Virus record (IMG/VR): IMGVR_UViG_3300021560_000015
Coordinates: 1 to 64,000 of that record
Direction: 5' to 3' (one strand)
From: a virus
Lineage: Duplodnaviria; Caudoviricetes
DNA length: 64,000 nucleotides
Shown here: positions 564 through 18,052 of the stretch, piece after piece
Layout: the number at the start of each line of letters is the position of its first letter
How positions within the stretch are numbered: the first letter of the stretch is position 1
Program-made: the position numbers and the translations under genes
The notes under the pieces: model-generated
What the model saw: the letters and a program-made list of their open reading frames with translations, nothing else
What the model was told of the DNA's origin: nothing
Database searches by the model: none

Positions 564-2492
564 GTGACGCGCCCGCCGTACTCCGTCGATGCGATGACCG
601 GCGTGCTCGACTCGAGCCCCGGCGACGATCTCGTTCCGTACCCGATCAGCATGGAGATCGGCCGTGCCGGCCTACGCCGCACCGGCGGCTACGTCGACGA
701 CGAGTTCCTCCCGCAACTTCGGGCCCGCAAGGCCGTCAAGGTCTATCGGGAGATGCTGGACAACTCAGCCACTCTCGGCGGGTTCATGAACGCGGTGACG
801 CTGCTGTTGCGCCAGATCGAGTGGCGGGTCGAGGCGGCCAGCGACACCACCCCGCAGGCCCAGGCCGATGCCGACTTCCTGCAGTCCTGCATGGACGACA
901 TGGAGAACACCTGGGGCGACACGGTCCTCGAGATCGCCAGCTTCATCCCCTATGGCTGGAGCCTGCACGAGCCGGTCTACAAGATCCGGGGTGGGCCCTG
1001 GGAGCGTGACCCGAAGAAGAAGTCCAAGTACACCGATGGCGCGATGGGCTGGCAGAAGATCCCCGGTCGAGCCCAGGAGACGATGCTGCGCTGGAAGTTC
1101 ACCGAGACCGACGAGGTCGAGGCGATGATCCAGATGGCACCGCCTCGGTACGAGAAACGCGTACTGGACATGGAGCGGATGCTGCTGTTCCGCACCCGCC
1201 CGGACCGCTCCAACCCGGAGGGCCGCTCGGTCTTTCGCAACGCCTACAGCTCCTGGTGGAACCTCAAGCGGCTGGAAGAGATCGAGCTGATCGGTGCCGA
1301 GCGCGATCTGGCCGGTATGCCGGTGGCCAAGGTGCCAGCAAAGATCCTCGCAGCCAAGCCCGGCACCCCTGACTACGAGATGTTGCAAGCAGTCCGCACC
1401 TTGGTCACCAAAACCCGGCGCAACGAGCACGACGGCATCGTCTGGCCCTTCGACGTGGACCCGGACACCAAGCAGCCGGAGTACATGTTCGAGCTGATGA
1501 CCTCCGGCGGCAGCCGGCAGTTCGACCTCGAGGGCATCATCACCCGCTACCAGACCCAGATGCTGCAGTCCGTGCTGGCCGACTTCCTGCAGGTCGGACA
1601 CGAGAACGTCGGCAGCTACAACATGCACACCGACAAGCGCGGGCTGTTCCAGACCACCATCAACGCCTACGCCCAGATCATCGCGGACCAGTTCAACCGG
1701 CACGCCATCCCTCGGCTGTTCGCGCTGAATGGCAACAAGCCGCCCGAGCTGCCCAAGATCGTGCCCAACAACGTGGACCCGCCGGAGTTGTCCGAGCTCG
1801 GTGGCTTCATCCAGGTGCTCACCGCGGCCGGCTACCAGCTATTCCCGGACCCGGAGCTGGAGAAGTTCCTACGCGATGCTGCCCAGTTGCCGGCGCCCGA
1901 CCCGCAGGTCGAGGCGATGCGCGAGCAGGAGCAGCGTCAGCAGGCCATCATCGACCTGTCCAACCAGCAGCTGCAGATGGTCCAGGTGGAGCAGGCAGCC
2001 GCCCAGGGCCAGCTGGGGCTACAGCAGCAGGCGATGGACAACGAGGCCAGTGCTCAGCAGATCACCGCCGGGCCGGAGCAGGAACAAGGGCCGAGCGCCG
2101 ATGAGACCGCGCAGGCCGGCGAGAAGACCAAACAGTCCAAGCTCAAGACCGCCCAGGAGAAACAGAAGCTCTCGAACCTGAAGGCCAAGGGCAAGGAATC
2201 CAAGGCCAAGCCCAAGAAGAAGGTCAAGAAGTCGGACACCACCTCTGCATTCGGAGTTGACCACGGCGATATCAGCAAGGGCACGCTGAACGAGATGTCG
2301 TCCATGTTGGATGCCACCCGGCAGAAGTGGGCGCAGCGCCGGCAGGCTCAGGTTCAGTCGGGCCAGCAGCGTATTCAGAGCGATCGGCGCTCGGGCGCAT
2401 TCCAGGGCCTGCAGCAGAGGCTGGCCGACAGTGGCCAGGCCATCAAGCAGAAGCTGCAGCAGGATGTCCCACCACCACCGGAGAAGCCATGA
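564..2492 (+). CDS. Portal protein with Gln/Lys-rich C-terminal extension carrying an internal SAFGVDH tag
   Basis: Size, position after terminase, and DUF935/Mu gp29-like features (YGWSLHE, GRSVFRNAY, IITRYQTQMLQSVL, IIADQFNRHAIPRL). Confidence 0.85.
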   Translation: MTRPPYSVDAMTGVLDSSPGDDLVPYPISMEIGRAGLRRTGGYVDDEFLPQLRARKAVKVYREMLDNSATLGGFMNAVTLLLRQIEWRVEAASDTTPQAQADADFLQSCMDDMENTWGDTVLEIASFIPYGWSLHEPVYKIRGGPWERDPKKKSKYTDGAMGWQKIPGRAQETMLRWKFTETDEVEAMIQMAPPRYEKRVLDMERMLLFRTRPDRSNPEGRSVFRNAYSSWWNLKRLEEIELIGAERDLAGMPVAKVPAKILAAKPGTPDYEMLQAVRTLVTKTRRNEHDGIVWPFDVDPDTKQPEYMFELMTSGGSRQFDLEGIITRYQTQMLQSVLADFLQVGHENVGSYNMHTDKRGLFQTTINAYAQIIADQFNRHAIPRLFALNGNKPPELPKIVPNNVDPPELSELGGFIQVLTAAGYQLFPDPELEKFLRDAAQLPAPDPQVEAMREQEQRQQAIIDLSNQQLQMVQVEQAAAQGQLGLQQQAMDNEASAQQITAGPEQEQGPSADETAQAGEKTKQSKLKTAQEKQKLSNLKAKGKESKAKPKKKVKKSDTTSAFGVDHGDISKGTLNEMSSMLDATRQKWAQRRQAQVQSGQQRIQSDRRSGAFQGLQQRLADSGQAIKQKLQQDVPPPPEKP

Positions 2493-3172
2493 TCAGCGCC
2501 TTCGGGGTCGATCACAGCCTGATCGCCAAGACTGACGACAAGCAGGCCCGCTACTACCGCCGGCAGGCCAACACGCTGGGCGCGGTGAGTGTGGGATCCG
2601 CAGGACTGGCCGGTATCGCCGGCGGCATCGGGCTGCGCGAACACCATGGCCACGATCCGATGGGCTTCGCTCAGCCGCACAACTGGCGCACCACGGTGCC
2701 CAAACGTGAGCGGGCTCTCGAGTTGTCGCGGGTGGCCCACGAGCACGGCAAGCAGGTGCTGGAAGCCGGAGCGGCCAGCCTGGCCACCGGAGGATTGGCA
2801 GCCGCCTACAGGCGCAAGCAGCGCAAGGCACAGTTGACCAAGGCTGACCGACGCGATCGGAACCTGGATATCGCCACCATGGGGGCCGGTACTGCGGCAG
2901 TGGGCGGCAGTCTCTACGGCGCTCGCGGATACAACGAGCACGCCGATAAGGCCGGCAAGCGGGCCCTATCCGCCCATCGGCTGCTTCGTGGAGACACCGG
3001 TGGCCACCACGTCCGAGAGCTGGAGCACGCCTGGCACAACCGCCGGACCGGTGCTCGGGTCTGGGCGCTGAAGAAGCCAGGCTCGGCAGCGGTAGTCGGA
3101 ATGGGCGCGCTCGGCGGGGCAGCTGCGATCGGGGCTGGCCGGCACCTCTACCAGGGGAGGCAGCAGTCATGA
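2489..3172 (+). CDS. Tagged basic Gly/Ala-rich putative capsid-internal protein
   Basis: ATGA overlap with portal stop; starts MISAFGVDHSLIAK; paralog of 3169-3954 (shared GHDPMGFA, TKADR, KKP..A..G). Confidence 0.75.
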   Translation: MISAFGVDHSLIAKTDDKQARYYRRQANTLGAVSVGSAGLAGIAGGIGLREHHGHDPMGFAQPHNWRTTVPKRERALELSRVAHEHGKQVLEAGAASLATGGLAAAYRRKQRKAQLTKADRRDRNLDIATMGAGTAAVGGSLYGARGYNEHADKAGKRALSAHRLLRGDTGGHHVRELEHAWHNRRTGARVWALKKPGSAAVVGMGALGGAAAIGAGRHLYQGRQQS

Positions 3173-3954
3173 TCAGCGCTTTCGGCGTCGACCACGCCCT
3201 CATCGCCAAGTCGACCCAGAAGGAGCAGGAGCAGCACTACGGCCGGATGGCGGGGATCATGGGCGCGACCGGAGTGGGAGCCGGCGGGATCGCGACGGGG
3301 TCCGGGATCATCGCGCACCTGGAGCGTAAGGGCCACGACCCGATGGGCTTCGCGGAAGAGGGCTCCATCGGCAAGGTGCCGAAGGCGAAGGAGCGCGCGG
3401 CGATCCTGGCCGAGAACATGGAGGGCCACAAGTGGCAGGCCAAGGTCGGCAGCCGGATGGCAGCCGGGGCCCTCGGATTGGCCGGCGCCTACAAGGGCAA
3501 GCAGCTCTACACCCGACGCCAGGCCCGTAGGCAGCAACAGGTGCCGGTGACCAAGGCGGACAGAAAGCAGTGGCGTCATCGCGGTGATGTGGCCAGCAAT
3601 GTCGGGCTGGACACGGCCAGCGCGGGTCTTGCCGGGGCCGGGCTGGTCGGTGGCATGAAGATGAGCCACGTGATGAACCAGGGTGCCAACGAGCGCATCG
3701 AGGAGGGGCGCTTGGCGCACCACGCGCTCGCCGCGCGCAAGTTGGGCGAGAAGATCCAAGGCGAAGGTGCCGGCGAGGAATGGCTGCCCCATGAGGGTGT
3801 GACACTCGCCCGGCAACAGCGCAAGGTTGCGATGCGGGTGGGTGCGGTGAAGAAGCCGGCCGCTATCGCCCTCGGTGGCATCTCCGCACTCGGTGGTGCC
3901 GGGCTGTATGAGGTAGGTCGGCATGCTGCGGCCAGCAGGAAGAAGCAGTCATGA
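3169..3954 (+). CDS. Tagged basic Gly/Ala-rich putative capsid-internal protein (paralog of previous gene)
   Basis: Starts MISAFGVDHALIAK; two-module structure; ATGA coupling. Confidence 0.75.
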   Translation: MISAFGVDHALIAKSTQKEQEQHYGRMAGIMGATGVGAGGIATGSGIIAHLERKGHDPMGFAEEGSIGKVPKAKERAAILAENMEGHKWQAKVGSRMAAGALGLAGAYKGKQLYTRRQARRQQQVPVTKADRKQWRHRGDVASNVGLDTASAGLAGAGLVGGMKMSHVMNQGANERIEEGRLAHHALAARKLGEKIQGEGAGEEWLPHEGVTLARQQRKVAMRVGAVKKPAAIALGGISALGGAGLYEVGRHAAASRKKQS

Positions 3955-4763
3955 CCAACGCCTTCGGCATCGAGCACTCGCCCATCGTCAAGGTGGATCT
4001 CCCGCCGGGGTTCCCGAAGAACATCGAGCGGGTGGGCATCAAGGCGGCCTACAAGGCCGGTCGGCAGGCCCGTGCCGCGATCGACGCCAAGCAGGCCGAC
4101 ATGGGTGCCTCAGAGTTCCGGGCCGCGAAGAAGGAGGCAGGTGCCTTCGGCAATGCAGCCGAGGGGCCTAGCCCGAGTTTCGCAGAACGGGCCGCCCAGC
4201 ACGTCGGCTTCCACCGCAACGCCTACATGGTGGGCGCGGGCGCGACCAAGGAAGGCATCGCGGTAGGCGCCGGAATCTCGGCCTACAACCAACGCAAGAA
4301 GCGCAAGGCGATGGAAGCGGCGGGCTACCAGCCCCCACCGGACACCAGCATGGCGCCGGTGGTCGGCGCACTCACGAAGGGGATGGACATGATCAGCGCA
4401 TTCGGTATCGAGCACGGGCCGATCAGCAAGGCTGACCAGCCAGCTCCGCCCAACGCTCAGCCCCGCCGCGCTTCTGGTGGCCGGGTCGCGACCACCTACT
4501 TCCTGCCGGGCATCCACGGCGCGGTCGCCGCCAAGCCGGGCCGCAAGCTGCGGCAGACAGGCAGCGAGGTCGGCCATGTTGCAGGTGGCGGCATCCTCGG
4601 TGGGATCGCCGGCTCCGTGCCAGGTGCGATCATGCACAATCCCAAGGTTGCCGAGGCAGGCTCCGCATTGGGTCAGATTGGCGGCGGTATCTACGGCGCC
4701 AAGCGCAGTGCGGACATCGGCACGGCTCGCGGTCGCTTCCCCGCACAGCGGCCTCAGAGCTAG
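3951..4763 (+). CDS. Double-tagged putative capsid-internal protein
   Basis: Starts MTNAFGIEHSPIVK; second in-frame MISAFGIEHGPISK at 4389. Confidence 0.75.
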   Translation: MTNAFGIEHSPIVKVDLPPGFPKNIERVGIKAAYKAGRQARAAIDAKQADMGASEFRAAKKEAGAFGNAAEGPSPSFAERAAQHVGFHRNAYMVGAGATKEGIAVGAGISAYNQRKKRKAMEAAGYQPPPDTSMAPVVGALTKGMDMISAFGIEHGPISKADQPAPPNAQPRRASGGRVATTYFLPGIHGAVAAKPGRKLRQTGSEVGHVAGGGILGGIAGSVPGAIMHNPKVAEAGSALGQIGGGIYGAKRSADIGTARGRFPAQRPQS

Positions 4764-5236
4764 TGATCAGCGCCTTCGGGGTTGAGCACAGCGAGATCAG
4801 CAAGCTCTCGCTGCGCCGGTACTACCACGCCTCGACGGCGACCCTGAAGGCTGGCGATAAGATCAAGCCGGCGGCAGCTATCGGCTTCGACCCCCAGCAC
4901 CCACCGGCGGAGGCGTGGCGTGGCACCCGAGTCTGGATGGGTAACCGCAAGAAGGTTGCTCGCGATTGGGTCGGCCGGGATGCACATGTCTATCGGGTCA
5001 AGCCGTCCAAGGACGTATCCGCGCATACGCCGAATGCCTATGACCGCAAGGCCTTCCAGGACGTGATGTTCATGCCCAAGAAGCGGCGTCGCGCCGAGGG
5101 CCAGTACCACGCGGGTGAGGCCGAGATAATGGCAACCCATCGTGGTCTCAAGCGTGCTGCCGCAGGGACTGTTGTCGGCGGGGGCGCAGCCGGCGGCACT
5201 GCCGGTGTCATTCACCACCGAAGGAAGTCCCAATGA
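4763..5236 (+). CDS. Tagged protein with Arr-like ADP-ribosyltransferase fold
   Basis: ISAFGVEHSEISK tag, then YYHAST..LKAGDKIKP...VWMG...VYRVKP, resembling the Arr pattern FHGT.ADL..GDL...YF...VY.VEP. Confidence 0.6.
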   Translation: MISAFGVEHSEISKLSLRRYYHASTATLKAGDKIKPAAAIGFDPQHPPAEAWRGTRVWMGNRKKVARDWVGRDAHVYRVKPSKDVSAHTPNAYDRKAFQDVMFMPKKRRRAEGQYHAGEAEIMATHRGLKRAAAGTVVGGGAAGGTAGVIHHRRKSQ

Positions 5237-8200
5237 CCGCCACCGTGCGCTGGCCGACTGAACCAGGGTTCAACCGAGCTGCGGCTGATGTCGTCTACAA
5301 GGCGATGATGGAGCTGGACGACGATTCAGCCCTCATGTTCGGCCGGATCCTGGTGCTCGAGGGAGTGCGCCAGGATCTGGCTGGCTACAGCGAGCCGATC
5401 GCCAAGATGCTGGATGAGCAGGCCCGCGCCCGGACCACACTGCTGAAGAAGCGATTGGCCCGCACCGTGATCGCAAAATCACGGCGCGGTGAAGACAATG
5501 TCCCCGAATTGGCGATGCTGGCAAACCTGAGCAAGGACTACGACCAGGAGGAGGCACGGGACTGGCGCGGTCGTTGGGCCACCCATGAAGGGCGTCGGTT
5601 CGTCGACCACACCCCGGTGAACACGATGTCCGGCTATGAGCCGATGAAGAACAAGCACTCCATAAACATGGGCATCCCGCTCCTGCCAAAAGAGGACAAC
5701 AAGAAGAACAAGATCGACTGGAGCGACGAGGACAAGGCGCACTACCAGCAGGCTTACGCACAGATCGCTCAGCTGGTTGCGCCCTACCGGCGGGCCGGCA
5801 ACCAAGCGCTGCTGCATCTGCATGTCGCGGACAACAACGGAGTAGTCCGGGAAGAGGTCGTCAAGGTCCCGGCCACGGTGACCGACAAGAAGGGCGATAT
5901 CAGCCTGCATATCGCCCGCGATCTGCATCCAGAGGACCGAATCGTAGGTGCCTCGGTGTCCACTTCCCCCACCATCTCCGCCTCCGGAGCGGCTTATGAC
6001 GTGTTCGCCGCAGCCGGCGCACCGCGGCTCGGCGGTGCAGTAGCCGGCGGCATGCAGCGTGGTGGCCTGCTGCACCCGAAGGGGATGGCAACCTACCGGG
6101 AGAAACTGGATGCGGCCTACAACGAGCAGCAGACCCCGGAGGGCCGGGCCTTCGCCCGGCTAGGTGCCTCCAGCGAGATGCTGCGCACCACCCTGGGGCC
6201 GGCCGCACCACCCAAGGCACAGATGGCGCTGCTGGTCGGGGAGCACCTGGGCAAGTACGGGCCGGAGGCGCAGAAGGTGATTGGGCCGGCTGCCGATCGA
6301 GCGGCCTATCGCTACCGCGGCACCGAGCGCAAGGTCGACCCAGAGCTGGGCCGGATGGTGGAGCGCATCAAGACGGATGTGCCAGTGGTCACCCGTAACG
6401 GCACCCCGGACCGAGATGCCACCATTGCTGCCCGCCGCGAGGCACTGATCCACGGCTTCGAGGACGAGCCGACCAGGATCGGTCAGCAGCCCATGGATCA
6501 GGCCTGGACCCCTTCGCGGCTGCTGGAGTACTACGGGCCGGGTGGCAAGGTGCTGCCCAAGTCCGATCTGAACACCCTGCAGCGCAAGGCCGGCAACATC
6601 CCGCCTAGCCAGGGCGTGATCATCGACGACAAAGGCAACCTGGCCGTGCAGGCGGCTGGCTTCGGGGATGACTGGTACCTGCCGTTCAACCTGAAGAACC
6701 TCAAGGCACTCAAGGGTGGCGAGTACGTGCGCACCCGCACCTTCGGCGGGCTGACCACCGAGGATGTCTACGCCGGGCTGATGTCTGGTGCCCGGTCGAT
6801 GACCGTGGTCAGTCACTCTGGGGTGTTCACCATGGAGTTCGACCCCACGCTGCGCGGCGGCCGGCGCTTCAACGACAAGGCACTGGCGATGACCGGCCGC
6901 TATGGCCATCTGCTGGATGCCGTGCAGAGCCGGGATGTAGCCGGCAACATCCACCCCTCGCGGATGCAGGAGATCCGGGACAAGGCGGCCACGATGGCCG
7001 ACCCGGTGGAGGACAAGGAGGAGTACGACAAGGAAGTCGAGCGGCTGAAGAAGAAGGAGATGATCAACCCGACTCTCTCCGAGCAGCAGAAGAACGAGGC
7101 GGCGCTGGATTTCCTGCAGGATCAGGCGAGCAAGAACCCCGATCTCAATGCGGACACTCCCGAGCAGCTGGCCCGCAACGTGCTCGAGAGGCAGGCGGCA
7201 AAGGGCTTCGCCGCACATGTGGCCGGGGCCAAGCAGCTGGGTGTCGAACCGGTGCGCGACCTGGACTTCTACCGCCGGCAGGCGGTCAGCTCGCTGGCCT
7301 CGGATGACCCGCAGGTTGTCGCGGAGAACGTGGCCGGCGTGCTGGGCAAGGAGAACGCCTACAAAGCCTGGATGGACCGGGCCGCGCAGGACAATAAGAT
7401 CAACCTGACGCCGCTGCAACTGGACGCGAACGGCTACCGGCTGGCCCAGGATGCACTGAAGGAGCAGTTCCCCTACTACATCGCCCGCACCGACTTCCAC
7501 CGCTGGAACAACGCCAACGCCAGCCATGACACCGGCTACGTGATGCCCAAGCACAACCGGCCGGCCGAGGTGCTCTCCGGCTACTACAACCCGCAGATCG
7601 AGGGGCATAAGGGCAAGGGCACCGGCGAGGTCAGCGGCAAGGAGTCGGGCAAGTACCGGGCTAGCTCCACCCGCTTCCAGAACTACCCGGTGCGGCAGGG
7701 CAAGCTCGAGTTCACCGGGGAGAAGCCGGAGAAGAAGACCGGCGACACCGAGTCCAAGGTGGGTGGCGGTAAGTCCGGCAAGATCTCCGAGGCCGATGCC
7801 GAACAGCTGCGTGACGATGTCACCCGGCGGGCCGCACATCACCTGCTGGACCAGACGGAGTTTGCCCCAGGTGCCGAATTCCAGAACCAGAAGAAGGGCA
7901 CCGATCTCTCGGCGTTCACTCCGATGGAGGCCATCACCGACTCCCAGACTCCCGCAGAGAGCGTGGGCAAGGAGTTGAAGGAGCTGTTCGTCAACAACAA
8001 GAACAGCCGCGACTGGATCGACGAACAGCTGGCCGACCCGGTCAAGGCCAAGCGGCTGCACACCATGGTGCTGGCTGCCTATGGCCAGGCGCAGCGCAAC
8101 AAGGACAAGCCGCTGTTCAACCTGGACCAGAAGCTGTTCGAGGAGCTCAAGCGGGCCGGCAAACCGGCGCAGGAGAAGGAGCCGGAGAAGGACACCTCGA

Positions 8201-8757
8201 AGATCCTGCGGGACATCAACACCGACTATGCATGGGGCAGCAAGTACTCCAGCACGAAGACGCACACCGCGGAGTCGCTGGAACAGACCTATGCCGCCGA
8301 CCCGAAGATCAAGGCACTGGTCAAGGCAAAGTTGCTGCCTGAGCAGCTGGCCATCGAGAACAAGGAGTTCGAGACCGCAGCTCAGAAGCTGGGGGTCGAT
8401 CTGGGCAAGCAGCAGAGCCTGCACATCCGCACCCTGGACACTCCGGGCAAGGCGAAGCGCGGCAAGTGGATCAACGATCAGGCGGTCGGGCTGCACCGGG
8501 CCAAGCAGTTGCGCCGGCGTTTCGACCGATCCGTGGAGGTCAAGGCCGAAGAGGATGCGATGGCCGCTGCTCAGGCCGCCGCAGCTGCAGCCGAGCAACC
8601 GCAGGTCTCGATCCGGAACGCGGCCGGCATGGTGATGGGCCCCAAGGCGCCCGGTGAAAGCGATGAGGACTGGATTGCCCGTCATGAGGAGGCCTGGCGC
8701 AGGGTCAACGGTGGCAATGGCGGCAGCACTGAGCCGCCGCTCGAACTCGGGCCATGA
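5233..8757 (+). CDS. Large putative virion-internal polyvalent protein (RDxxGRW motif, degenerate JAB-like segment)
   Basis: 1174-aa ORF with coupled start/stop; LSKDYDQEEARDWRGRWA near N-terminus. Confidence 0.65.
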   Translation: MTATVRWPTEPGFNRAAADVVYKAMMELDDDSALMFGRILVLEGVRQDLAGYSEPIAKMLDEQARARTTLLKKRLARTVIAKSRRGEDNVPELAMLANLSKDYDQEEARDWRGRWATHEGRRFVDHTPVNTMSGYEPMKNKHSINMGIPLLPKEDNKKNKIDWSDEDKAHYQQAYAQIAQLVAPYRRAGNQALLHLHVADNNGVVREEVVKVPATVTDKKGDISLHIARDLHPEDRIVGASVSTSPTISASGAAYDVFAAAGAPRLGGAVAGGMQRGGLLHPKGMATYREKLDAAYNEQQTPEGRAFARLGASSEMLRTTLGPAAPPKAQMALLVGEHLGKYGPEAQKVIGPAADRAAYRYRGTERKVDPELGRMVERIKTDVPVVTRNGTPDRDATIAARREALIHGFEDEPTRIGQQPMDQAWTPSRLLEYYGPGGKVLPKSDLNTLQRKAGNIPPSQGVIIDDKGNLAVQAAGFGDDWYLPFNLKNLKALKGGEYVRTRTFGGLTTEDVYAGLMSGARSMTVVSHSGVFTMEFDPTLRGGRRFNDKALAMTGRYGHLLDAVQSRDVAGNIHPSRMQEIRDKAATMADPVEDKEEYDKEVERLKKKEMINPTLSEQQKNEAALDFLQDQASKNPDLNADTPEQLARNVLERQAAKGFAAHVAGAKQLGVEPVRDLDFYRRQAVSSLASDDPQVVAENVAGVLGKENAYKAWMDRAAQDNKINLTPLQLDANGYRLAQDALKEQFPYYIARTDFHRWNNANASHDTGYVMPKHNRPAEVLSGYYNPQIEGHKGKGTGEVSGKESGKYRASSTRFQNYPVRQGKLEFTGEKPEKKTGDTESKVGGGKSGKISEADAEQLRDDVTRRAAHHLLDQTEFAPGAEFQNQKKGTDLSAFTPMEAITDSQTPAESVGKELKELFVNNKNSRDWIDEQLADPVKAKRLHTMVLAAYGQAQRNKDKPLFNLDQKLFEELKRAGKPAQEKEPEKDTSKILRDINTDYAWGSKYSSTKTHTAESLEQTYAADPKIKALVKAKLLPEQLAIENKEFETAAQKLGVDLGKQQSLHIRTLDTPGKAKRGKWINDQAVGLHRAKQLRRRFDRSVEVKAEEDAMAAAQAAAAAAEQPQVSIRNAAGMVMGPKAPGESDEDWIARHEEAWRRVNGGNGGSTEPPLELGP

Positions 8758-10940
8758 CCAGCGGGTATGCCACCTTCCAGCACGTCCCGGACGCGCTGGC
8801 TCCGCAGTTCGGCTACACGCCTACTCCCGTGCAGCCGGTACAGCGCGACCACCGTACTGAGCACCGGGTCGCCCTTGCCGCAGCCGTAGTGACTGGGCTG
8901 TTGGTGGCCCGGCACTACCTGAAGAGACAGGAGACCCCGAAGCCGGGCAACGCACGGCTGCAGGCATTGCAGGCCTTCGCGATGGCTCGGCCCACTTTCA
9001 TGGGGCTTGCCGTGCCGGCCGCCAACGCGCTCTACGGCGTGGTGCGCAAGGATCTGGTTGCCGCTGAAGAGCATGCCGAAGGCCTCGGGGACTACCTGGC
9101 CACCAGCTCGGCCACCGCGCTCCAGGAGGGATTCGACCGACAGCTGGCTGCTGGCTGGCACCCTGATGTGGCGTGGCACCGCAGCGTCGAGGGCTATGGG
9201 CTCGACGCTCGAGGGATGCGCGCCTACGTGGACCGGCTGCTGGTGGATAAGGACCCCAAGGAGCTGGTGCCGGCCTCGGCCAAGCGGGCTGTGCACCAGG
9301 CCCTGATTACGCGCGCGGACACGGTGGCCGGCGAGAAGCCCCGACAGCCGGTGGTCAAGGCCTACAACCCCTATCAACCGCGCGATGAGCACGGCCGCTG
9401 GGCAGCCGATCGCTACGGCCGATTCGCAGTCACCGGCGGCCGGGACTATATGAATGTCGAGCAGGTGCGTAATGCGCTGGCCCAGGTGGACCCGAAGATG
9501 AAGCTGGTGCACGGCAATGCACGTGGCACGGACCAGCTGGCCGCGGGGCTCTGGGAGGGAGAGAAGGAGATCTACCCTGCCGACTGGGCCCAGTACGGCA
9601 GGTCAGCAGGCCCGATCCGCAACCGGGAGATGGTGGAGTCCGGGCTCGACTTCGTGATCCGCTTCCCCGGCGGGAAGGGCACTGCGGACATGAGCCGGCA
9701 GGCCAAGCGGGCCGGCGTGCGGGTGGTTGACCACGACAAGATGGACCAGCTGGCCAAGGCCTATGACCCCCAGGAGAAGCGAGAGCCTAAGGGCAGCCCG
9801 CACGGCGGGCGCTGGGCAAGGGTGGCAGAGCGCCCAGAGGCCAGCCCAGCGGTGGAGGCGATGTTCGAGCAAGCCGCCGCCCAGGAGGAGAAGCGGGGGC
9901 TAGGGCTGTTCGAGCCGGAGGAGAAGGCCAAGACCGAGGGTGGCCTGGGACTGTTCGAGCCGCAGAAGCAGCAACTGTTCGAGACCAAGCCGCAACTGTT
10001 CGAGCGACAGGCGCTATTCGAGCGACAGGCGCTGTTCGAGCCAAAGGTGCAGGCCAGGGCGCAGCTGTTCGAGCCGAAGGTCCAGCCGCGGATACAGATC
10101 GAGCGCCGCACCCTGCTGTTTGCCCCTCCCGGCATCCCGCATGTGGCGCCCGACCGCAGTCCGGGCCAGGCCAATTGGTACTACCCAGCCGGCGATCTGA
10201 CCGCCTTCCTCAACTACAAGTACGCGGATGAGCCACCGGAGCACGTGTCGAAGACCATCAACTTCACCGAGGTGCGCGACTACAACAGGACGGTGCTGCG
10301 CAACGACAACCCGATCTCGGCCGAAGCCGGTGAGTATCCGTGGGACTTCACGCCGGCACTCAATGTCAGTGAGAGCGACTGGGACACGATGATGACCATC
10401 GCCTATCCACTGTGGCTGGAGGTCTTCAAGAATGCCCCGCAATACGTGAACAACCTCAACGACGAGGACTGGGAGCAGGTGGGTCGGATGGCCGGATTGA
10501 ACTCGGCCGATGATGTCGAGGGCGCGGTCTTGACCGATCCCCATGAGGACCAGTGGCAGTCCGCGGTGCGTGAGGCCTTCGCCGACTACATGCTCTGGCG
10601 ACTCCCCGAGAGCCTGCCCGATCTGCCTGTCTATGGCCGGGACGACAAGGATGAGTTGATCGAAGCCAACTCCGACAATATGACCTCCATGATCATCAAC
10701 AACGTGATGGGTGGCCTGGAGGAGGTCGCGGAGAAGATGAGCCCGTCACTGATGGTCTTCAAGCATGGACCCAACAATGCCGGCCCCCTCACCGACATGC
10801 GCGGTCATTACAACCTGGACTCCACCACCTATCGCTCCGCGATGCTGGAGTTCACCGGCAATCCGCCGACCGGCATTACTGGGGTCGGTGAGTGGTTCTA
10901 CAAGCCCGGTTCGGATTTCGGCGCGGGCAGCATGACATAG
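8754..10940 (+). CDS. Multidomain head-associated protein with SLOG (YspA/DUF2493-like) domain and LFE repeats
   Basis: AVTGGRDY...LVHGNARGTD...ADWAQYGRSAGPIRNREMV...FPGGKGTADM is a typical SLOG signature. Confidence 0.75.
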   Translation: MTSGYATFQHVPDALAPQFGYTPTPVQPVQRDHRTEHRVALAAAVVTGLLVARHYLKRQETPKPGNARLQALQAFAMARPTFMGLAVPAANALYGVVRKDLVAAEEHAEGLGDYLATSSATALQEGFDRQLAAGWHPDVAWHRSVEGYGLDARGMRAYVDRLLVDKDPKELVPASAKRAVHQALITRADTVAGEKPRQPVVKAYNPYQPRDEHGRWAADRYGRFAVTGGRDYMNVEQVRNALAQVDPKMKLVHGNARGTDQLAAGLWEGEKEIYPADWAQYGRSAGPIRNREMVESGLDFVIRFPGGKGTADMSRQAKRAGVRVVDHDKMDQLAKAYDPQEKREPKGSPHGGRWARVAERPEASPAVEAMFEQAAAQEEKRGLGLFEPEEKAKTEGGLGLFEPQKQQLFETKPQLFERQALFERQALFEPKVQARAQLFEPKVQPRIQIERRTLLFAPPGIPHVAPDRSPGQANWYYPAGDLTAFLNYKYADEPPEHVSKTINFTEVRDYNRTVLRNDNPISAEAGEYPWDFTPALNVSESDWDTMMTIAYPLWLEVFKNAPQYVNNLNDEDWEQVGRMAGLNSADDVEGAVLTDPHEDQWQSAVREAFADYMLWRLPESLPDLPVYGRDDKDELIEANSDNMTSMIINNVMGGLEEVAEKMSPSLMVFKHGPNNAGPLTDMRGHYNLDSTTYRSAMLEFTGNPPTGITGVGEWFYKPGSDFGAGSMT

Positions 10941-10970
10941 ACGGGCTGCGCACCCCCTGACGATAAGGGT
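10940..10970 (+). promoter_or_regulatory. Putative late promoter, leaderless
   Basis: GACGGGCTGCGC-ACCCCCT-GACGAT-6 nt-GTG, same spacing as the portal copy. Confidence 0.7.
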
Positions 10971-13115
10971 GTGACCCACCCCGATGCTGACTTCGTCGCG
11001 CTACACAAGGCGATCTACGGCGAGTCGGTGGATGTCCGCGAGGCCTGGGAGATCGCCAAGCTGGCCACCGACGCACCGGATATGCACGTTGACCAGCCGA
11101 CCCAACGCAAGCAAGCCAAGGCCAAGAACCCGAACGCCGGCAAGGAGGGCCTTGCTGCCGGCCTCCTGCTCGGCGTGCCGGCCGAGTCGATGGCTGCCGC
11201 CAAGCAGATCAGAGAGACCGCGACCAAGCTGAAGGAGCCGATGGCCGCGCCGGCCACTGGCCACCTGTTCAATCGCGTCAGGGGGTTCAAGGGCGGTAAG
11301 CCCGCCGCGGTGGGCGAGGCGGCACTGCAGACCGCCAACCTCGGGGTTGGCCTGCTGGCCGCTCGCGAGCTGCTGAAGAAGCCCAAGCAGCAACCGGTCG
11401 CCAAGGCAGGTCGTATCCAGTTGCGAGCTGTCAATGCTGCCCAGGTACAGGCCCGAGTTCCCTCGCTACGCGCGCGCCGTCCTCCTGGCTCGCCGGGGCC
11501 GATGGGCAAGTCCTTCGATGCCAAGGTGACCATCGCCAAGGTCAATCCGTACAAGCAGCAGGTGTTCGGCTGGGCCCAGGTGGCCGCCTGGGATGGCCAG
11601 GAGGTGCACGACCGGCAGGGCGATGTGGTCAGCATCGACGAGCTGGAGAAGGCCGCCTATGACTATGTGCTGGATTGCCGGATGGGTGGTGACCAGCACG
11701 GCCGGGTGACCAAGGCCGATGGCCCGCGACAGACCGCCACGATGATCGAGTCGATGGTCTTCACGCCCGAGAAGATCGAGGCGATGGGCCTGCCATCGAA
11801 CTTCCCGCAAGCGTGGTGGACAGGGTTCCAGGTGCATGATCCACAGGCTTGGGATGATGTCATCACCAAGCGGCGTACCGGCTTCTCGGTGCACGGCACC
11901 GGCCGGCGTGAGCTGGTGAGCAAGGTCGATCTCAATGCGGCAGCTCGATTCGCCCGGAAAGCATCGCGCAAGGTCAGCGGCCGAATAACCGCTCAGCCGG
12001 TAGGGGAGAGCCCGCGCTCTGTTGTGGTCCGCCGTGGCAAGTTCGCGGTCAGCCCATCCGGCGAGGCCAGGTGGCAGCCGGTGACCAAGGCCGATTTGAA
12101 AGAGCGTGTCCAGGCCGCGGTCCATCCCCCACCGGTGGCCCGACATGAGGTGCAGTCCACTGCGGTGAAGAGCATGGGCTACCAGCCGCAGACCCACCGG
12201 CTGGCCTACGAGATGCACTCTCGGCCGGATCAGCCCTACAACTACAAGGCCAGCAAGGAGCAGGCCTACGCCGCTCAGCATGCGCCGTCCATCGGACACC
12301 AGTACGCCACCCAAGTTCGCGGCAGGTACAAGCGCAAGGAACGGATCCTCAACCCGATGGACCGGGCGCGGCTATTCGTGAACCCACCGCCGCAGCAGGT
12401 GTCCAAGGATGTCGACCCCTCCGTGCAGCGCCGGCGCAAGGTAGCGGGCACCACCGAGACCGCCGCCAGCCTGACCGCCGGCACAGTTGGTGCGGGCTTC
12501 GCCGGGGCTCAGGCACGTAAGCAGTTCCAGGAGGAGCATCCAGCTCGCTACCGACAGGTGTCCAGCGCAGTCGGCCGCTTCGGGGCGAAGGGGCCGAAAC
12601 GGGCCTGGATGGCCGGCAAGGTGCTCACCGGCAAGCCCAACCTGGCGGCGTTCGGCGCATTGCTCGCGGCTGGTGGTGTCGCTGGCGCAGCGCACCGTTA
12701 CCAGCAGGCCTCGAAGCTGAATGAGTTGTACCAGGGCTCAGACCTGCAGCAGCGGGTACGGCATCCACGCCGGCGGCGTGCCAAGGCCGCCGTACAGCCG
12801 GTATCCAAGGACAACACCCTGCTCACCCCGCAGCAGGTGTCCCGCCGGCAGAAGCGCGCTTCCATCTACTCCAAGGTCGGGGCCACGCTCGGGCTGGCAG
12901 CACTCGGCTCTAAGGCCGGGGCGGCTGGGGTACGTCGGTTCGCTACCGACGCTGAGAAGGGCGCGAACATCGCCGACCAGCTGGAGCGGCACACCTCCAC
13001 GGTGCTGGCCGGCGGCGCCGGGCTGTCCGCGATCAGCGGGTTCAACTCCGCAAGGCTCTCGCGCAACTCGGCACTGCAGGAGCAACAGCAGCAGAAGGTA
13101 GGCGGCATCCGATGA
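10971..13115 (+). CDS. Polyprotein containing XkdF-like prohead serine protease and KTSC domain
   Basis: KQQVFGWA...VHDRQGD...ELEKAAYDYV...HG...MIESMVFT...WWTGFQVHD..W....RTGFSVHG (XkdF-like); VQSTAVKSMGY...Y.Y...A.SIG..Y...VRGRY (KTSC-like). Confidence 0.75.
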   Translation: MTHPDADFVALHKAIYGESVDVREAWEIAKLATDAPDMHVDQPTQRKQAKAKNPNAGKEGLAAGLLLGVPAESMAAAKQIRETATKLKEPMAAPATGHLFNRVRGFKGGKPAAVGEAALQTANLGVGLLAARELLKKPKQQPVAKAGRIQLRAVNAAQVQARVPSLRARRPPGSPGPMGKSFDAKVTIAKVNPYKQQVFGWAQVAAWDGQEVHDRQGDVVSIDELEKAAYDYVLDCRMGGDQHGRVTKADGPRQTATMIESMVFTPEKIEAMGLPSNFPQAWWTGFQVHDPQAWDDVITKRRTGFSVHGTGRRELVSKVDLNAAARFARKASRKVSGRITAQPVGESPRSVVVRRGKFAVSPSGEARWQPVTKADLKERVQAAVHPPPVARHEVQSTAVKSMGYQPQTHRLAYEMHSRPDQPYNYKASKEQAYAAQHAPSIGHQYATQVRGRYKRKERILNPMDRARLFVNPPPQQVSKDVDPSVQRRRKVAGTTETAASLTAGTVGAGFAGAQARKQFQEEHPARYRQVSSAVGRFGAKGPKRAWMAGKVLTGKPNLAAFGALLAAGGVAGAAHRYQQASKLNELYQGSDLQQRVRHPRRRRAKAAVQPVSKDNTLLTPQQVSRRQKRASIYSKVGATLGLAALGSKAGAAGVRRFATDAEKGANIADQLERHTSTVLAGGAGLSAISGFNSARLSRNSALQEQQQQKVGGIR

Positions 13116-13606
13116 TCAGTGCGTTTGGCATCGACCACGGCAGTGTGATCCGCAAGGACGACATCAGCGACCAGGCCAAGGTCGCGCTGGTGTCCGGGAT
13201 GCGCAACTCAGGGATGGCGTTCCAGAACAAGGACGCCCGTAAGCAGTACCGGCAGAACACCCGGATGGCCGCCCGTACTTTCCGCTCCGGTCCGTACAGC
13301 GCGGAGAACCGCAAGCGGATGGGCATTGGCGTGGGTGCCGGTACTGCAGCCGGCGCGTTGCTTGGTGCGGGAGCTGGCGCGCTCATGCATGGCGGGATGG
13401 GCGCAGCGAAGGGCGCGAAGATCGGCGCGGCGGTCGGTGGTGTCTCCGGCGGTGCCTCCGGCGCCGATGTCGCCTCCACGGTGAACTGGCAGAAGGCCTC
13501 AATGCGCGGACTGGACCGCAGCATCAAGCAGGGCGGGGTGCAGACCGGGGTGCCGAAGGAGCAGATCAGCCGCTGGACCGCGACCCGGAGGCCTGATCAG
13601 TCGTGA
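13112..13606 (+). CDS. Tagged glycine-zipper putative capsid-internal protein
   Basis: Starts MISAFGIDHGSVIRK; GIGVGAGTAAGALLGAGAGAL glycine-zipper segment. Confidence 0.75.
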   Translation: MISAFGIDHGSVIRKDDISDQAKVALVSGMRNSGMAFQNKDARKQYRQNTRMAARTFRSGPYSAENRKRMGIGVGAGTAAGALLGAGAGALMHGGMGAAKGAKIGAAVGGVSGGASGADVASTVNWQKASMRGLDRSIKQGGVQTGVPKEQISRWTATRRPDQS

Positions 13607-15702
13607 CCAGCCCACAAGATGATCCGTGGTTCGGTTCCCAGCAGGAGCCGAAGCACAAAGGGCTGCTCGGGGAGATGGAGAAGCACCCGGCGATCACCAC
13701 CGGTGCGGCACTGGCCTCGGTGCCGGTCGGGATTCGCACGCACGGAGATGTGCAGGCGATCCGCAGCATCGCCCACCTCAAGGATCCGGAGCGGGGCGCC
13801 AAGCTGGTTAGCGACCTGGCCCAGCACCGTTCCGAGGCGCTGCCGGGGATCGGCGGTGGCAAAGGTGTTGCGGATGTGCTGCGCGGTCAGCGGGAGATCC
13901 ACCAGGCGGCTAAGGCCGGCAACAGGGACATCGGAGCACTGCGGCCCACGGTGAACCGCTACTCGCGCACCTTCGAGCAGGCCGGAAAGATCAAGGCAGC
14001 CGGCAACAAGCCAGTGCATGGGTTCGGCGGTGCACTGGCGCATCCGATTCGTGCCGAGCGTGGCCTGCATGCCAGGGTGCTGGGCGGCCTGATCGACAAC
14101 GCCAAAGAGGGTGAGCACCCGCACCTGTACCGCAGCCAGCACAACGTCGGCACCCACCAAGTGGGCGACACCGTTGACTTCGGCCGCTTCTCCTCCTTCA
14201 CCTCTGACAGGGCGATTGCGCAGCACACCGGCGCTGCGCACGAGGCGGCCAAGCTCATGCCTGGCAAGCCGACCACCCCGGAGGGCAGCAAGGGAGTCAT
14301 CTATCACCTGCCGGCCGGCACAGGGAAGGCAGCGAACTTGTCCGGCGCCACCAACCGGTTCGCACAGAACGAGTGGATGGCCGGCGGCAAGTACCAGGTG
14401 ACCGATGTAAAGGGGAGTCACGTGTATCTCGGAGCACACCCGGACAGCGTCGGTAAGCGCTGGGAGAAGCAGGGCGGCGGCTGGACGAAGAAGGGCGCCC
14501 CTGCCGGCAAGGGCGGACACATCGAGGATCCCGGTCAGTACGAAGCGGTCAAGCGCGCGACTGGTAGCAAGCGGATCGCAGCAGCGGTGTCCAACACCCC
14601 GCACCAAGTGCACCGCAAGAACATCTTCAAGGCCTCGGTCTACAGCGCCAGCAGCCAGGGCGCGATCGCGCAGGAGCAGGCCAACGAGCGACAGCGGGCT
14701 CGCTCCCATGCGGTTGCTGCAGGGGCAGTAGGGAACCTGATCGGTACTGGCGCCTTTCTCGGCCACCAGCAGCTCAAGCACTCCGCGCTGCCCCAGGGAG
14801 CAGAGGCTGCTGCACGACGAGCCAAGCAGCTCGAGCACATCAAGCACGCCGGCTTCATCGGTACTGCCGGGGCACTGGGTGCCGCTGGTGCGTACGCCAT
14901 GGCCGGCCGACACCACCGCAAGGAGGCACGGGCCGCCGCGCGCAACGTGGAGAACTTGAAGCAGAACCCGCCGACGATCTTCCACTCACTCAGCAAGGCC
15001 AATGGCTTCGGCATCGACGAAGAGCTGGTGATGGCCTACCAGGCTCCGCTGGCCAAGGGCTACGGCCGCTCCTTCGAGCCGGCCAGTCTGCCACCGGGGA
15101 CCAGTGGTGGTACATCGGGTGGGCGCAAGTCCGGACAGGACTATGCCCGCGAGATGCAGAACCGCAATGCGCGCGAGCAGGCATATCGCCGGCGCCGTAA
15201 CACTGCCAAGCCGCCCATGATCGGGGTGGGCAAGGCCTTCGATTCCGAGCGGCAGCGGCACCGGCGTCGAGCCGCGTATGAGGGTGCTGCCGCCGGCGGT
15301 TCAGTGAGTGCTGCCGCCGGAGCTGGCTATCTGGGCCACAAGGCACGCGGCAAGTTCGGCGAGGCGGGCGGCGAGCGGGCACAAGCTACGGAGTTGAGAG
15401 GGAGAGCAGAGGAATCTCTGCGCAGTCTCCCGCCGCGCAAGCGAGGTGCAGCGGCCACCCTGCCACCCAAGTGGCAGGACACCGCGCGGGCGGCATCGAG
15501 GGACCTGACTCGGGCGCATGCGCACCAGGCGAACGCCGTCAAACTGGCCGGCGAGGCGCGCAAATTCCGTGCCGGCGCGGTCGGTGCCGGTGTCGCTTCG
15601 GCCGGCGCAGCGTACGGCGCCTACAAGCTGCATCGGCAGGGCCAGAACCGTGGTCGCAGCTACGCCCAGGGACCAGCCAACCGGGTCTACGGCTACGCCT
15701 AA
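13603..15702 (+). CDS. Polyprotein with R-S-E type ADP-ribosyltransferase domain and Gly/Ala modules
   Basis: LYRS...VGDTV.FGRFSSFTS...A...VIYHL...G...S...QNEW...YQV resembles the VIP2/Alt-type ART motif order. Confidence 0.65.
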   Translation: MTSPQDDPWFGSQQEPKHKGLLGEMEKHPAITTGAALASVPVGIRTHGDVQAIRSIAHLKDPERGAKLVSDLAQHRSEALPGIGGGKGVADVLRGQREIHQAAKAGNRDIGALRPTVNRYSRTFEQAGKIKAAGNKPVHGFGGALAHPIRAERGLHARVLGGLIDNAKEGEHPHLYRSQHNVGTHQVGDTVDFGRFSSFTSDRAIAQHTGAAHEAAKLMPGKPTTPEGSKGVIYHLPAGTGKAANLSGATNRFAQNEWMAGGKYQVTDVKGSHVYLGAHPDSVGKRWEKQGGGWTKKGAPAGKGGHIEDPGQYEAVKRATGSKRIAAAVSNTPHQVHRKNIFKASVYSASSQGAIAQEQANERQRARSHAVAAGAVGNLIGTGAFLGHQQLKHSALPQGAEAAARRAKQLEHIKHAGFIGTAGALGAAGAYAMAGRHHRKEARAAARNVENLKQNPPTIFHSLSKANGFGIDEELVMAYQAPLAKGYGRSFEPASLPPGTSGGTSGGRKSGQDYAREMQNRNAREQAYRRRRNTAKPPMIGVGKAFDSERQRHRRRAAYEGAAAGGSVSAAAGAGYLGHKARGKFGEAGGERAQATELRGRAEESLRSLPPRKRGAAATLPPKWQDTARAASRDLTRAHAHQANAVKLAGEARKFRAGAVGAGVASAGAAYGAYKLHRQGQNRGRSYAQGPANRVYGYA

Positions 15703-15745: not shown

Positions 15746-16615
15746 ATGCCCCGCTACCGGCTCTCGGACATGGACTTCGACGAGGTCTCCACCGTCGACA
15801 AGCCGGCCAACCAGTACTCCCGCATCGTCCTCGCCAAGCGCTTCCAGGAGGACGGAATGACAGAGCCTGAATACGAGGCGCCCGAGGAAATCTACGACGC
15901 CGACGGAGACCCGGTGGATATCGCCTCGCTGGATCCGGATCAACTGATCCAGGACGACGAGGGCTTCTTCTGGCACAGCGACGGCGAACGTCTCGTCCCG
16001 GTCTGGGAGGACGAGCTGCAAGGCGAACCGGAGTATGCCGAAGTCGGTAAGTCTTCGGCATTCCTGGACAACGCCGGCTCGCCACCCACCTACACCCAGC
16101 AGGTGCTCGAGGGCCTGTCGGTCGAGCTGTCCAAGGCGCTCGACGATGAGCAGCGCACCCAGGTGGTGTCCAAGGCGGTACAGGGGCTGGTCGACGAGAA
16201 CTACGCACTGTCCAAGCGGGTCGGCCAGTTCGAGGCAATCGCCAAGCGCGAGCGGGAGATCCGCCTGGAGCGCGAGTACATCGCCAAGGCCGACACCTAC
16301 AACGTGCCGGTCGACCCCACCGTGCTCGGCCCGGTGCTGATGCGGATGGCCGAACTGATGCCCTACGACGACTGCGCGGTCATCGACAAGGCGCTGACCG
16401 CCTCCGGTGAGATCTTCACCGAGCTCGGGATGGGCGGCGAGGCCGACATGAGCGATCCGTTCGCGCAGATCGAGGAGTACGTGGCCGACGCCGGCACACA
16501 GGTGGCCAAGCGGGACGGCCGGTCCGGGATCTCGAAGGAGCAGGCGACGGTCGAGTTCTTCAACGAGAACCCGGACGCCTACAACGAGTACCGGCGCGAG
16601 CAGGCGAGGAGCTGA
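15746..16615 (+). CDS. Capsid scaffolding protein
   Basis: N-terminal DEVSTVDKPAN motif typical of scaffolds in XkdF-type head modules; acidic coiled coil; upstream of capsid genes. Confidence 0.7.
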   Translation: MPRYRLSDMDFDEVSTVDKPANQYSRIVLAKRFQEDGMTEPEYEAPEEIYDADGDPVDIASLDPDQLIQDDEGFFWHSDGERLVPVWEDELQGEPEYAEVGKSSAFLDNAGSPPTYTQQVLEGLSVELSKALDDEQRTQVVSKAVQGLVDENYALSKRVGQFEAIAKREREIRLEREYIAKADTYNVPVDPTVLGPVLMRMAELMPYDDCAVIDKALTASGEIFTELGMGGEADMSDPFAQIEEYVADAGTQVAKRDGRSGISKEQATVEFFNENPDAYNEYRREQARS

Positions 16616-17047: not shown

Positions 17048-18052
17048 ATGCCAATGACGCCCTACGCATCCGATCTCCACATCGACAGGCTGCTGAGCAA
17101 TGTGTCAGTCGCCTATTTCATGGACCCGAACGACTTCATCGCGGACAAGATGTTCCCCGGTGTGCCGAGCGGTCCACGAAGCAACTTGTTCCGCAAGTAC
17201 AGCAAGAGCGACTGGCGTCGCACCGATGCCGAGAAGCGGGCCCCCGGTACCGAGTCGGCCGGCATCAGCTGGAACGTGAACAACGACCGGTTCTTCGCCG
17301 AGGTGTATGCCGCGCACGTCGACATTGATGACCAGACCCGAGCGAACGCCAGCGAGGATCAGTGGAACCTGGACTCTGACGCCACCCGGCTGATCACCAA
17401 CCACCTGCTCATCCAGAAGGATGTGCTCTGGGCTAACCAGTACTTCAAGACCGGTGTCTGGGGCCAGGAGTACCAGGGCGTTGCGTCCGCTCCGACCGGC
17501 ACTCAATTCGTGCAGTGGAACGTAAGTACGTCGGACCCGCTGTCCAACTTCAGCAAGTGGCGCACCGCATTCCGGCTGTCCACCACCAAGCCGGTGTCCG
17601 TCATGCTGATGGGTGCCGATGTCTGGGTCGCGCTCGAGAACCACCCTGCGATTCTGGACCGGATCAAGTACACCCAGAAGGGCGTCGTCACCCAGGACCT
17701 GGTGGCCGGCTTCTTCGGGGTGCCGAAGCTGCTGGTGGCCTACAGCTCGCAGGGCACCGGTCCGAAGATTGCCGACGCAGCGGCACAGGATGCGGCAGCC
17801 ACCTACAGCTGGACGATGGACTCCAAGTCGATCCTGTTCGGCTACGCACCGGACCGCCCGTCCCAGTTCGAGCCGGCGATGGGCTACACCTTCAACTGGA
17901 AGGGCTATGGCGCGGGCAACCGGTCGGGGCTGACGATGAGCCAGTTCCGCCAGCAGCACCTCAAGAGCGACCGGATCGAGGGCGAGGCCGCCTACGACCT
18001 CAAGCTCGTGTCCGCCGACTGTGGAGTGTTCTGCACGGCAGCTGTCGCGTAG
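17048..18052 (+). CDS. Major capsid protein
   Basis: 334 aa; HIDRLLSNVSVAY start; strong RBS AGGAGG; position in head module. Confidence 0.85.
   Translation: MPMTPYASDLHIDRLLSNVSVAYFMDPNDFIADKMFPGVPSGPRSNLFRKYSKSDWRRTDAEKRAPGTESAGISWNVNNDRFFAEVYAAHVDIDDQTRANASEDQWNLDSDATRLITNHLLIQKDVLWANQYFKTGVWGQEYQGVASAPTGTQFVQWNVSTSDPLSNFSKWRTAFRLSTTKPVSVMLMGADVWVALENHPAILDRIKYTQKGVVTQDLVAGFFGVPKLLVAYSSQGTGPKIADAAAQDAAATYSWTMDSKSILFGYAPDRPSQFEPAMGYTFNWKGYGAGNRSGLTMSQFRQQHLKSDRIEGEAAYDLKLVSADCGVFCTAAVA

Follow-up and report, generated by a model that had tools for sequence, protein, structure and literature searches.

A modular peptide tag on head-region proteins of uncultured siphophages, a candidate detachable capsid-targeting signal

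We analysed the first 64 kb (the window; about 65% G+C) of the 76,953-base IMG/VR virus record IMGVR_UViG_3300021560_000015, whose left end holds, on the plus strand, the head and tail module of a siphophage. Several proteins of this module carry the same short peptide, made of the core SAFG[VI][DE]H and an adjoining hydrophobic-x-Lys tripeptide ([IVLFMY]-x-K, hereafter phi-x-K). The core is conserved as a peptide, is specific to phages and does not depend on its position in the protein, and the tripeptide lies between the core and the body of its bearer. The tag is found on modular cargo proteins and on the portal protein, is confined to the head block, and comes with a biased distribution of phi-x-K in two data sets. 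Judged from sequence, it is probably a detachable capsid-targeting tag that an XkdF-type prohead protease would remove; in function it would then correspond to the capsid-targeting sequence (CTS) of phage T4.

Tag copies, two-part layout and spread

The initial annotation had placed the peptide at five gene starts, internally at 4389, in the portal at 2244 and, in degenerate form, at about 15001. A six-frame search, read together with the translations, confirmed all of these positions as seven exact copies of SAFG[VI][DE]H plus one degenerate copy. The back-translated core GCNTTYGGNRTNGANCAY matches the window seven times, always on the plus strand, whereas 0.01 matches are expected from dinucleotide-preserving shuffles; the whole record holds the same seven copies, with none outside the window. 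The copies are listed below, with a slash marking each predicted cut and lengths in amino acids (aa).

2489..2530, + strand: N-terminal tag MISAFGVDHSLIAK; gene 2489-3172, 227 aa, basic, Gly/Ala-rich
3169..3210, + strand: N-terminal tag MISAFGVDHALIAK; gene 3169-3954, 261 aa, paralogue of 2489-3172
3951..3992, + strand: N-terminal tag MTNAFGIEHSPIVK; gene 3951-4763, 270 aa
4763..4804, + strand: N-terminal tag ISAFGVEHSEISK, GTG start; gene 4763-5236, 157 aa
13112..13156, + strand: N-terminal tag MISAFGIDHGSVIRK; gene 13112-13606, 164 aa, Gly-zipper-like, DUF3482 E 4.5e-7
4374..4430, + strand: internal tag LTK/GMDMI-SAFGIEH-GP-ISK/ (core copy MISAFGIEHGPISK at 4389), inside gene 3951-4763
2223..2279, + strand: portal tag VKK/SDTT-SAFGVDH-GD-ISK/ (copy SAFGVDHGDISK at 2244), in the portal frame, with phi-x-K on both flanks
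14986..15057, + strand: degenerate internal tag LSK/A-NGFGIDE-…-LAK/ (NGFGIDE at 15001), in the 699-aa protein 13603-15702

Codons vary among the copies, with all four Ala codons (GCA, GCC, GCT and GCG) and all four Gly codons (GGA, GGG, GGC and GGT) in use. Since synonymous positions differ, selection acts on the peptide, as had been proposed, and conservation of the tag at the DNA level was rejected. The proposal that the downstream sequences are mostly unrelated was likewise upheld, the exception being the paralogous products of 2489 and 3169 (37% identity).

The portal tag at 2244 lies about 80 aa upstream of the portal stop, in a C-terminal extension of about 200 aa in which the tag is preceded by a Gln-rich coil and a Lys-rich linker and followed by a tail of 70 aa. 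In two relatives, L002 and L003, the portal itself terminates at the core (…VGK-SAFGIEHQ, then stop). The degenerate copy at 15001 retains LSK upstream and LAK downstream. An ATG at 4389, preceded by a GAAGGGG run, makes a nested start possible within gene 3951-4763, whose two halves are separate genes in L003 and are fused, as in the window, in P0016. Purine runs resembling Shine-Dalgarno sequences precede all five tagged gene starts. The tagged genes of the window are also translationally coupled through ATGA or TAGTGA overlaps (3160-3172, 3942-3954, 4751-4766 and 13594-13606); their products terminate in …QS in four cases and in …SQ in the remaining one, and part of this end encodes the ribosome-binding site of the next gene. 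The repeated junction, together with the repeated tag codons, could favour the shuffling of cassettes.

To describe the tag beyond the window we used a degenerate DNA pattern for I-S-A-F-G-[VI]-[DE]-H, run on IMG/VR and on bacterial and archaeal genomes. In IMG/VR it matched 62 stretches on about 56 contigs of 48-68% G+C, with 107 unique tags, 88 of which begin a gene. In these 88 the core lies two (rarely one or three) residues past the start codon, and phi-x-K, a feature that the search did not demand, follows within 16 residues of the core in every case. In 87 of the 88, no other Lys stands between the core and the site Lys. Between core and site runs a linker of 0-5 residues, mainly Gly, Glu and Asp, with one Lys and one Arg among 212 residues, and the residue following the site Lys is Ala, Ser or Gly in 59. 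The leader can be written M-x-SAFG[VI][DE]H…[IVF]-x-K, its last position being Lys in 88/88. Position 2 is large (I, L, E, Q, H, R or Y) in 85 of the 88, so that the initiator Met is probably kept and the core would stand two residues from the free N-terminus.

Thirteen further copies terminate a protein (ending …SAFGIDHGY, …SAFGVDHE or …SAFGIEHQ before the stop) and have no downstream site. In these and in the two internal copies of the window, phi-x-K instead lies 0-5 residues upstream of the core, in 15 of 15 (for example VGK-SAFG, VSK-SAFG, VRK-SAFG and YAK-RDxV-SAFG), against a background of 7% of sequence windows (P ~6e-18, from at least five independent contexts). After an upstream cut, such cores would sit 0-5 residues from a new N-terminus. 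The core is thus usable at either end of a protein with the same tripeptide always between it and the body, which is the look of a detachable tag. The initial annotation had read the peptide as a modular, T4-like address ending in I-x-K. Its account of a modular, conserved peptide on unrelated head-module proteins stood. The tag proved to be phage-specific, with a two-part layout and site statistics like those of a protease site, and it is not restricted to N-termini.

Internal copies also recur in the polyproteins P0068, P0033, P0036 and P0054, where they join cargo units, mostly with phi-x-K on both sides (for example IGK/SAFGVEH..phi-x-K/). The 692-aa P0068, from Logan, has four internal tags; three read IGK-SAFGV…phi-x-K, and the first is without phi-x-K directly upstream. 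P0054 joins another protein to the front of a homologue of window protein 13112-13606, and AVAK/ stands upstream of the core.

In 596 Gb of bacterial and archaeal genomes, the degenerate DNA pattern matched 28 times, three times with a start codon just upstream and once with phi-x-K. These look like chance matches, which makes the tag phage-specific and bears out the expectation that the motif is not equally common in non-phage DNA. No prophage carrier was seen among the 28, and a prophage origin was rejected on the same ground. A profile built from 85 tagged N-termini and run against 5.8 billion proteins gave 221 matches at E <= 10. The best 120 of them are all tag-bearing metagenomic 'hypothetical' proteins, many on contigs of 76-83 kb; among their tags 116 are N-terminal, with a phi-x-K site in 116/116.

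Five relatives rated 99-100% complete by CheckV (76-83 kb, one with terminal repeats) hold 4-8 core copies each, on a single strand and in the head block only, and a reversed control pattern had no matches. When the structural proteins of the window and of L039 were mapped onto the loci, every tag in the mapped loci fell within the structural block and on its coding strand. Insertion points vary: tagged genes occur in the interval from terminase to portal, downstream of the portal gene, upstream of the scaffold gene, in the interval from capsid to adaptor, and among the adaptor, DUF6093 and gp10-like neck genes. Tags had been predicted to occur only between portal and capsid genes; confinement to the structural module held, but the range extends from the terminase-portal gap to the neck genes.

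Searched by megablast against 50,697 phage records, 20 kb of the window had no match. By portal, the nearest cultured relative is Arthrobacter phage Waltz, whose head genes carry no tag and hold one internal FGVDH only. The strings SAFGVDH, SAFGVEH, SAFGIDH, SAFGIEH and ISAFGV had no occurrence in a literature text search. In a distant relative, the Logan contig L012, two genes at 9685-10753 start with a variant tag, M…DPFGV[DA]RPDLV[TR]K. They directly follow a gene for an 859-aa protein with a C-terminal XkdF protease, and the second is a homologue of window protein 3169-3954 (35% identity); as a DNA pattern, the variant had no match in IMG/VR.

Tagged proteins, scaffold and a candidate protease

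BLAST at E 1e-3 sorts the 85 complete proteins with an N-terminal tag into 46 clusters. Their lengths range from 58 to 514 aa, with a median of 121; Gly, Ala, Arg and Lys are abundant in them, and the net charge is positive in 85/85 (median +0.14 per residue). Apolar Gly/Ala runs of at least 15 residues occur in 48 of the 85, and only two reach the hydrophobicity of classical transmembrane segments. A Pfam match was obtained for only two of 84 tagged proteins, one GNAT acetyltransferase and one DUF3482, and PHROGs was also nearly blank. The acetyltransferase motif (PF00583, E 2.3e-6) is in a 118-aa tagged protein of L046 (2372-2728, - strand). The diverse cargo that had been envisaged did not materialise as a broad set of enzymes: most tagged proteins are small, basic, Gly/Ala-rich and without known domains.

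The predicted structure of the 4763-5236 product has a weak likeness (TM 0.49-0.58; no more than a lead) to the rifampin ADP-ribosyltransferase domain of Arr-ms, and 17% of the members of its feature-based neighbour cluster carry ART-PolyVal; it may be an injected ADP-ribosyltransferase, as is T4 Alt. The number of tagged genes between the portal and the 1174-aa gene differs among close relatives whose portals are 79-86% identical: four in the window, three in L003 and two in L002. This rapid turnover of tagged genes recalls the basic internal proteins of T-even phages, which likewise vary (PMC3012670; PMC9026906).

Counted over the mature parts of the 85 tagged proteins, phi-x-K is rarer than expected from shuffling (123 versus 204, ratio 0.60, z -6.4), whereas phi-x-R is raised (303 versus 226, z +6.0). 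For twelve other arrangements of a hydrophobic residue and Lys or Arg, differing in spacing or orientation, the ratios were 0.91-1.17. The depletion persists with one representative per cluster (57 versus 94, z -4.8) and in a second set of 94 tagged proteins that share no 30-mer with the first (122 versus 250, ratio 0.49, z -9.7). No depletion was seen in tail proteins, in early proteins of the minus strand or in late proteins of the plus strand, the control ratios being about 1.1-1.3.

The scaffold shows the opposite trend. Across ten scaffold proteins, namely that of the window (15746-16615) and those of L021, L025, L035, L039, L040, L042, L051, L060 and L068, 112 of 134 lysines stand in phi-x-K versus 37 expected (z +14.7); in the window scaffold it is 11 of 11. 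This placement of Lys reads like a built-in fragmentation map. Avoidance of phi-x-K through the use of Arg in the retained, probably unfolded cargo, combined with saturation of the disposable scaffold, is what one would predict if the prohead were cleared by a protease specific for Lys with a hydrophobic P3, and we consider it highly likely from these patterns that phi-x-K is a maturation cut site.

The putative cutter is encoded within the same block. A 714-aa protein of the window contains an XkdF-type serine protease domain at aa 190-313 (nucleotides ~11538-11909). Besides this domain, PF14550 Peptidase_S78_2, no protease domain was detected in the head block, either in the window or in the divergent tag-bearing L060, where the S78_2 protease adjoins the scaffold (E 1.7e-17). 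As would be expected of a set of S78_2 substrates, the protease lies in the head block and phi-x-K is enriched in the scaffold and avoided in the cargo. From this setting we infer that the S78_2 enzyme cuts phi-x-K.

The scaffold also contains segments that recall the tag. Its N-terminus, EVSTVDKPANQYSRIVLAK/R in the window (15782-15850), is conserved as E[IV]S[TL]VD[KR].AN…V[IL][AS]K/R in 12 loci, and scaffolds hold an internal VGK/SAFF or VGK/SSAF (VGK/SSAF in the window) that resembles VGK/SAFG of the portals. The tag may derive from a scaffold segment or mimic one. In tagless phage Waltz the scaffold-like gp23 (L102 17722-18537) has phi-x-K 11 times versus 4.6 expected (z +3.6), and reads ETSGVDHPAH…VVCK/S in the part encoded at 17722-17830. 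The scaffold N-terminus, Waltz gp23 and the tag have S..VD[KH]…phi-x-K in common, a very short match. Waltz belongs to the Arthrobacter Laroyevirus phages, whose portal and capsid are related to those discussed here and which have an annotated maturation protease.

A proposed route into the head and its alternatives

In the route that we propose, the core SAFG[VI][DE]H would be a docking peptide that draws its bearer into the assembling procapsid. Its partner would be a conserved prohead component, for which the scaffold is our favoured guess and the shell or the protease are alternatives; the copies on the portal hint at a component on which the portal likewise depends. The putative destination of the tags, the shell, is made of the capsid protein 17048..18052. 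The phi-x-K between core and body would be the cleavage site of the XkdF-type (Peptidase_S78_2) protease, with the cut after Lys. Once the shell has closed, some ten phi-x-K sites in the scaffold would be cut by the protease, which would also clip the tags from cargo and portal alike. The tags and scaffold fragments would then leave the head, and the small, strongly basic cargo would stay with the DNA, presumably to be ejected into the host. The portal is a certain capsid component that bears the tag, in the window as in L002 and L003. A bolder version is doubtful: the heptapeptide would be a universal docking handle at either protein end, recognised by a single conserved receptor both on the portal, in twelve copies, and on all cargo, and a portal-anchored load would be built up inside the prohead and then released in one step by cutting at phi-x-K.

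Several observations weigh against the targeting interpretation or limit what can be drawn from it. Every carrier found is uncultured, and tagged protein 3169-3954 had no tblastn match in the 50,697 phage records even at E 1. Relatives L005-L007, whose portal and scaffold are similar, have no tags in their examined DNA. The invariance of the core is partly imposed by the search pattern. The statistics rest on related metagenomic sequences and ignore kinship, so the z-scores overstate independence, an effect that the one-per-cluster and second-set checks lessen without removing it. Four large untagged proteins of the head region are not depleted in phi-x-K (47 versus 48 expected); they would be either cut into pieces or shielded by folding. 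The avoidance of phi-x-K could have another cause, although no alternative that we conceived fits both the Lys/Arg asymmetry and the opposite trend in the scaffold. A literature search on the specificity of XkdF or HK97 proteases found no usable cleavage rule.

Among the alternatives, one that we think unlikely retains the cut and drops the import: the core would be a docking or exosite element that ensures processing by the protease, for instance to activate or separate latent membrane-active proteins. It would account for phi-x-K always adjoining the core, for the internal copies that serve as linkers in polyproteins such as P0068, and for the many cargo proteins whose Gly-zipper-like apolar runs (at least 15 residues in 48/85) could be harmful if free. 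Scaffolds, however, hold about ten phi-x-K each without any core, so the site seems sufficient for recognition; a seven-residue cap is unlikely to silence 46 unrelated proteins; and the portals of L002 and L003 stop at the core, where there is nothing to release or activate.

Somewhat less probable still is a handle for co-assembly, with cores binding each other or the portal, so that twelve portal copies and the cargo form a portal-anchored inner body or ejection complex and tag removal is secondary. In its favour, the core is short, beta-prone and nearly invariant, and the portals of the window, L002 and L003 present it on a tether that is long, flexible and rich in Lys. Against this, the portal tag is limited to this sub-lineage, other tag-bearing lineages put C-terminal tags on other proteins, and flanking cut sites point to a transient contact. 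We give little credence to the tag being a leader for another enzyme, as in ribosomally synthesised and post-translationally modified peptides, or to the excised 12-16-residue peptide being itself the product, such as a signal freed at lysis. Flanking cuts would indeed free near-identical peptides from 4-8 genes per genome, and the Asp/Glu-His is invariant in so short a peptide. Yet no modifying enzyme recurs beside the tags in the examined loci, where the recurrent neighbours are structural genes and the protease, and signal peptides normally diversify, whereas this core is constant across contigs of 48-68% G+C. A nucleic-acid-level or ancestry artefact (a recombination junction, a translation-initiation element or a single diverged paralogue family) is hardly credible: the coupled window genes with their ATGA or GTGA overlaps and …QS or …SQ ends and the paralogy of 2489 and 3169 would suit it, but synonymous sites are free, C-terminal and internal copies exist, the 46 clusters have no detectable similarity, and linker length varies while core and site are kept.

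The detachable targeting tag that we favour has its closest counterpart in T4. The T4 CTS consists of a targeting part followed by a processing part, and the protease gp21, which cuts at L/I-x-E, breaks the scaffold into fragments and shortens the internal proteins (PMC9026906); the contrast in phi-x-K use between cargo and scaffold matches this. T4 Alt loses both termini, and relatives of T4 hold varied basic proteins with CTS-like leaders (PMC9026906; PMC3012670). Like the CTS of IPI, IPII, IPIII and Alt, the tag is a short conserved leader common to unrelated, mostly small basic proteins of a fast-changing gene set (88 of 107 tags begin genes, in 46 clusters), and it has the same order of a targeting part and then a hydrophobic-x-charged cut site. 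In both systems the cut motif also chops the scaffold into many pieces, here as read from the sequence, and some tagged proteins have predicted cut sites at both ends, as Alt has cut sites at both. The differences are as clear. The tag has no sequence similarity to the MKTYQEFIAE leader and does not end in L/I-x-E, the predicted P1 being Lys here and P1 in T4 being Glu; the protease is of the XkdF-type S78_2 family and not of the gp21 type, none of which was found in the head block; the carrier is a siphophage of about 80 kb whose capsid is lambda E-like; and tags occur C-terminally, internally and on the portal as well. The tag would thus work like the T4 CTS without being a member of its family.

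Other systems share parts of this layout. In phages phiKZ and SPN3US, gp175 and gp245 respectively cut propeptides at a short degenerate motif, and as here many head-internal proteins, polyprotein-like ones included, are processed (PMC10052503, PMC7411985, PMC9026906). These are giant myophages, however, and their propeptides are long, lack a single conserved heptapeptide and are cut after Glu. In encapsulins, short conserved terminal cargo-loading peptides dock unrelated cargo inside a shell of the HK97 fold. The likeness lies in a short conserved terminal peptide on unrelated proteins, the contact between tag and shell being hypothetical here; encapsulin peptides are usually C-terminal, are not removed and have another consensus. 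In Staphylococcus phage 80alpha the N-terminal leader of the capsid and scaffold proteins is cut by the host protease Prp, which matures ribosomal protein L27. There too a conserved N-terminal peptide on several head proteins is removed at a defined site, but the enzyme is that of the host, the motif is another one and the leader is not known as a cargo address.

If the tag does target the capsid, loading by an address tag and a protease site would not be limited to T4-like and giant myophages, so far the sole groups with bench support, and would have had an independent origin in a large clade of siphophages of about 80 kb, where the protease belongs to another family and the cut site bears the opposite charge. 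The tag would then list the proteins that these uncultured phages probably inject, 4-8 per genome and in fast turnover, and a specificity for phi-x-K is predicted for XkdF-type prohead proteases. A very short tag that works N-terminally, C-terminally and internally would be a possible tool to package foreign proteins into capsids, given a carrier that can be cultured or a scaffold and protease that can be transplanted as a pair. Should the universal handle apply, a siphophage would possess a programmable device for loading proteins, which could be carried over as a seven-residue tag and a three-residue cut site.

Head-gene map of the window

The tagged genes lie among the following features of the window; the tail genes come after the capsid gene.

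3-533, + strand: terminase end
564..2492, + strand: Mu-type portal protein (PF06074 Portal_Mu E 3e-25; phrog_113 E 2.6e-75)
2489-5236, + strand: four small genes
between the four small genes and the 728-aa protein: 1174-aa protein
8754-10940: 728-aa head-region protein with a SLOG domain
10971..13115, + strand: 714-aa protein with the XkdF-type prohead serine protease domain (PF14550 Peptidase_S78_2, 40.6 bits versus a cutoff of 24)
13112-13606, + strand: 164-aa tagged gene
13603-15702, + strand: 699-aa protein with the degenerate tag
15746..16615, + strand: scaffolding-type protein
between the scaffold and capsid genes: small 138-aa protein
17048..18052, + strand: major capsid protein, lambda E-like (PF03864 E 9.5e-5, just under cutoff)

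The nearest cultured relatives infect Arthrobacter and Microbacterium (36-42% identity), and the capsid protein of the window is 38% identical to annotated capsid proteins of phages of these two genera. In the 728-aa protein, the SLOG/YspA-like domain was detected by PF10686 at 23.7 bits, which is below the cutoff, and by phrog_289 at E 2.3e-20; the same protein holds a run of LFE[PR]Q repeats. Its homologues adjoin the 1174-aa protein, on its 3' side, in L014, L029, L052 and L071.

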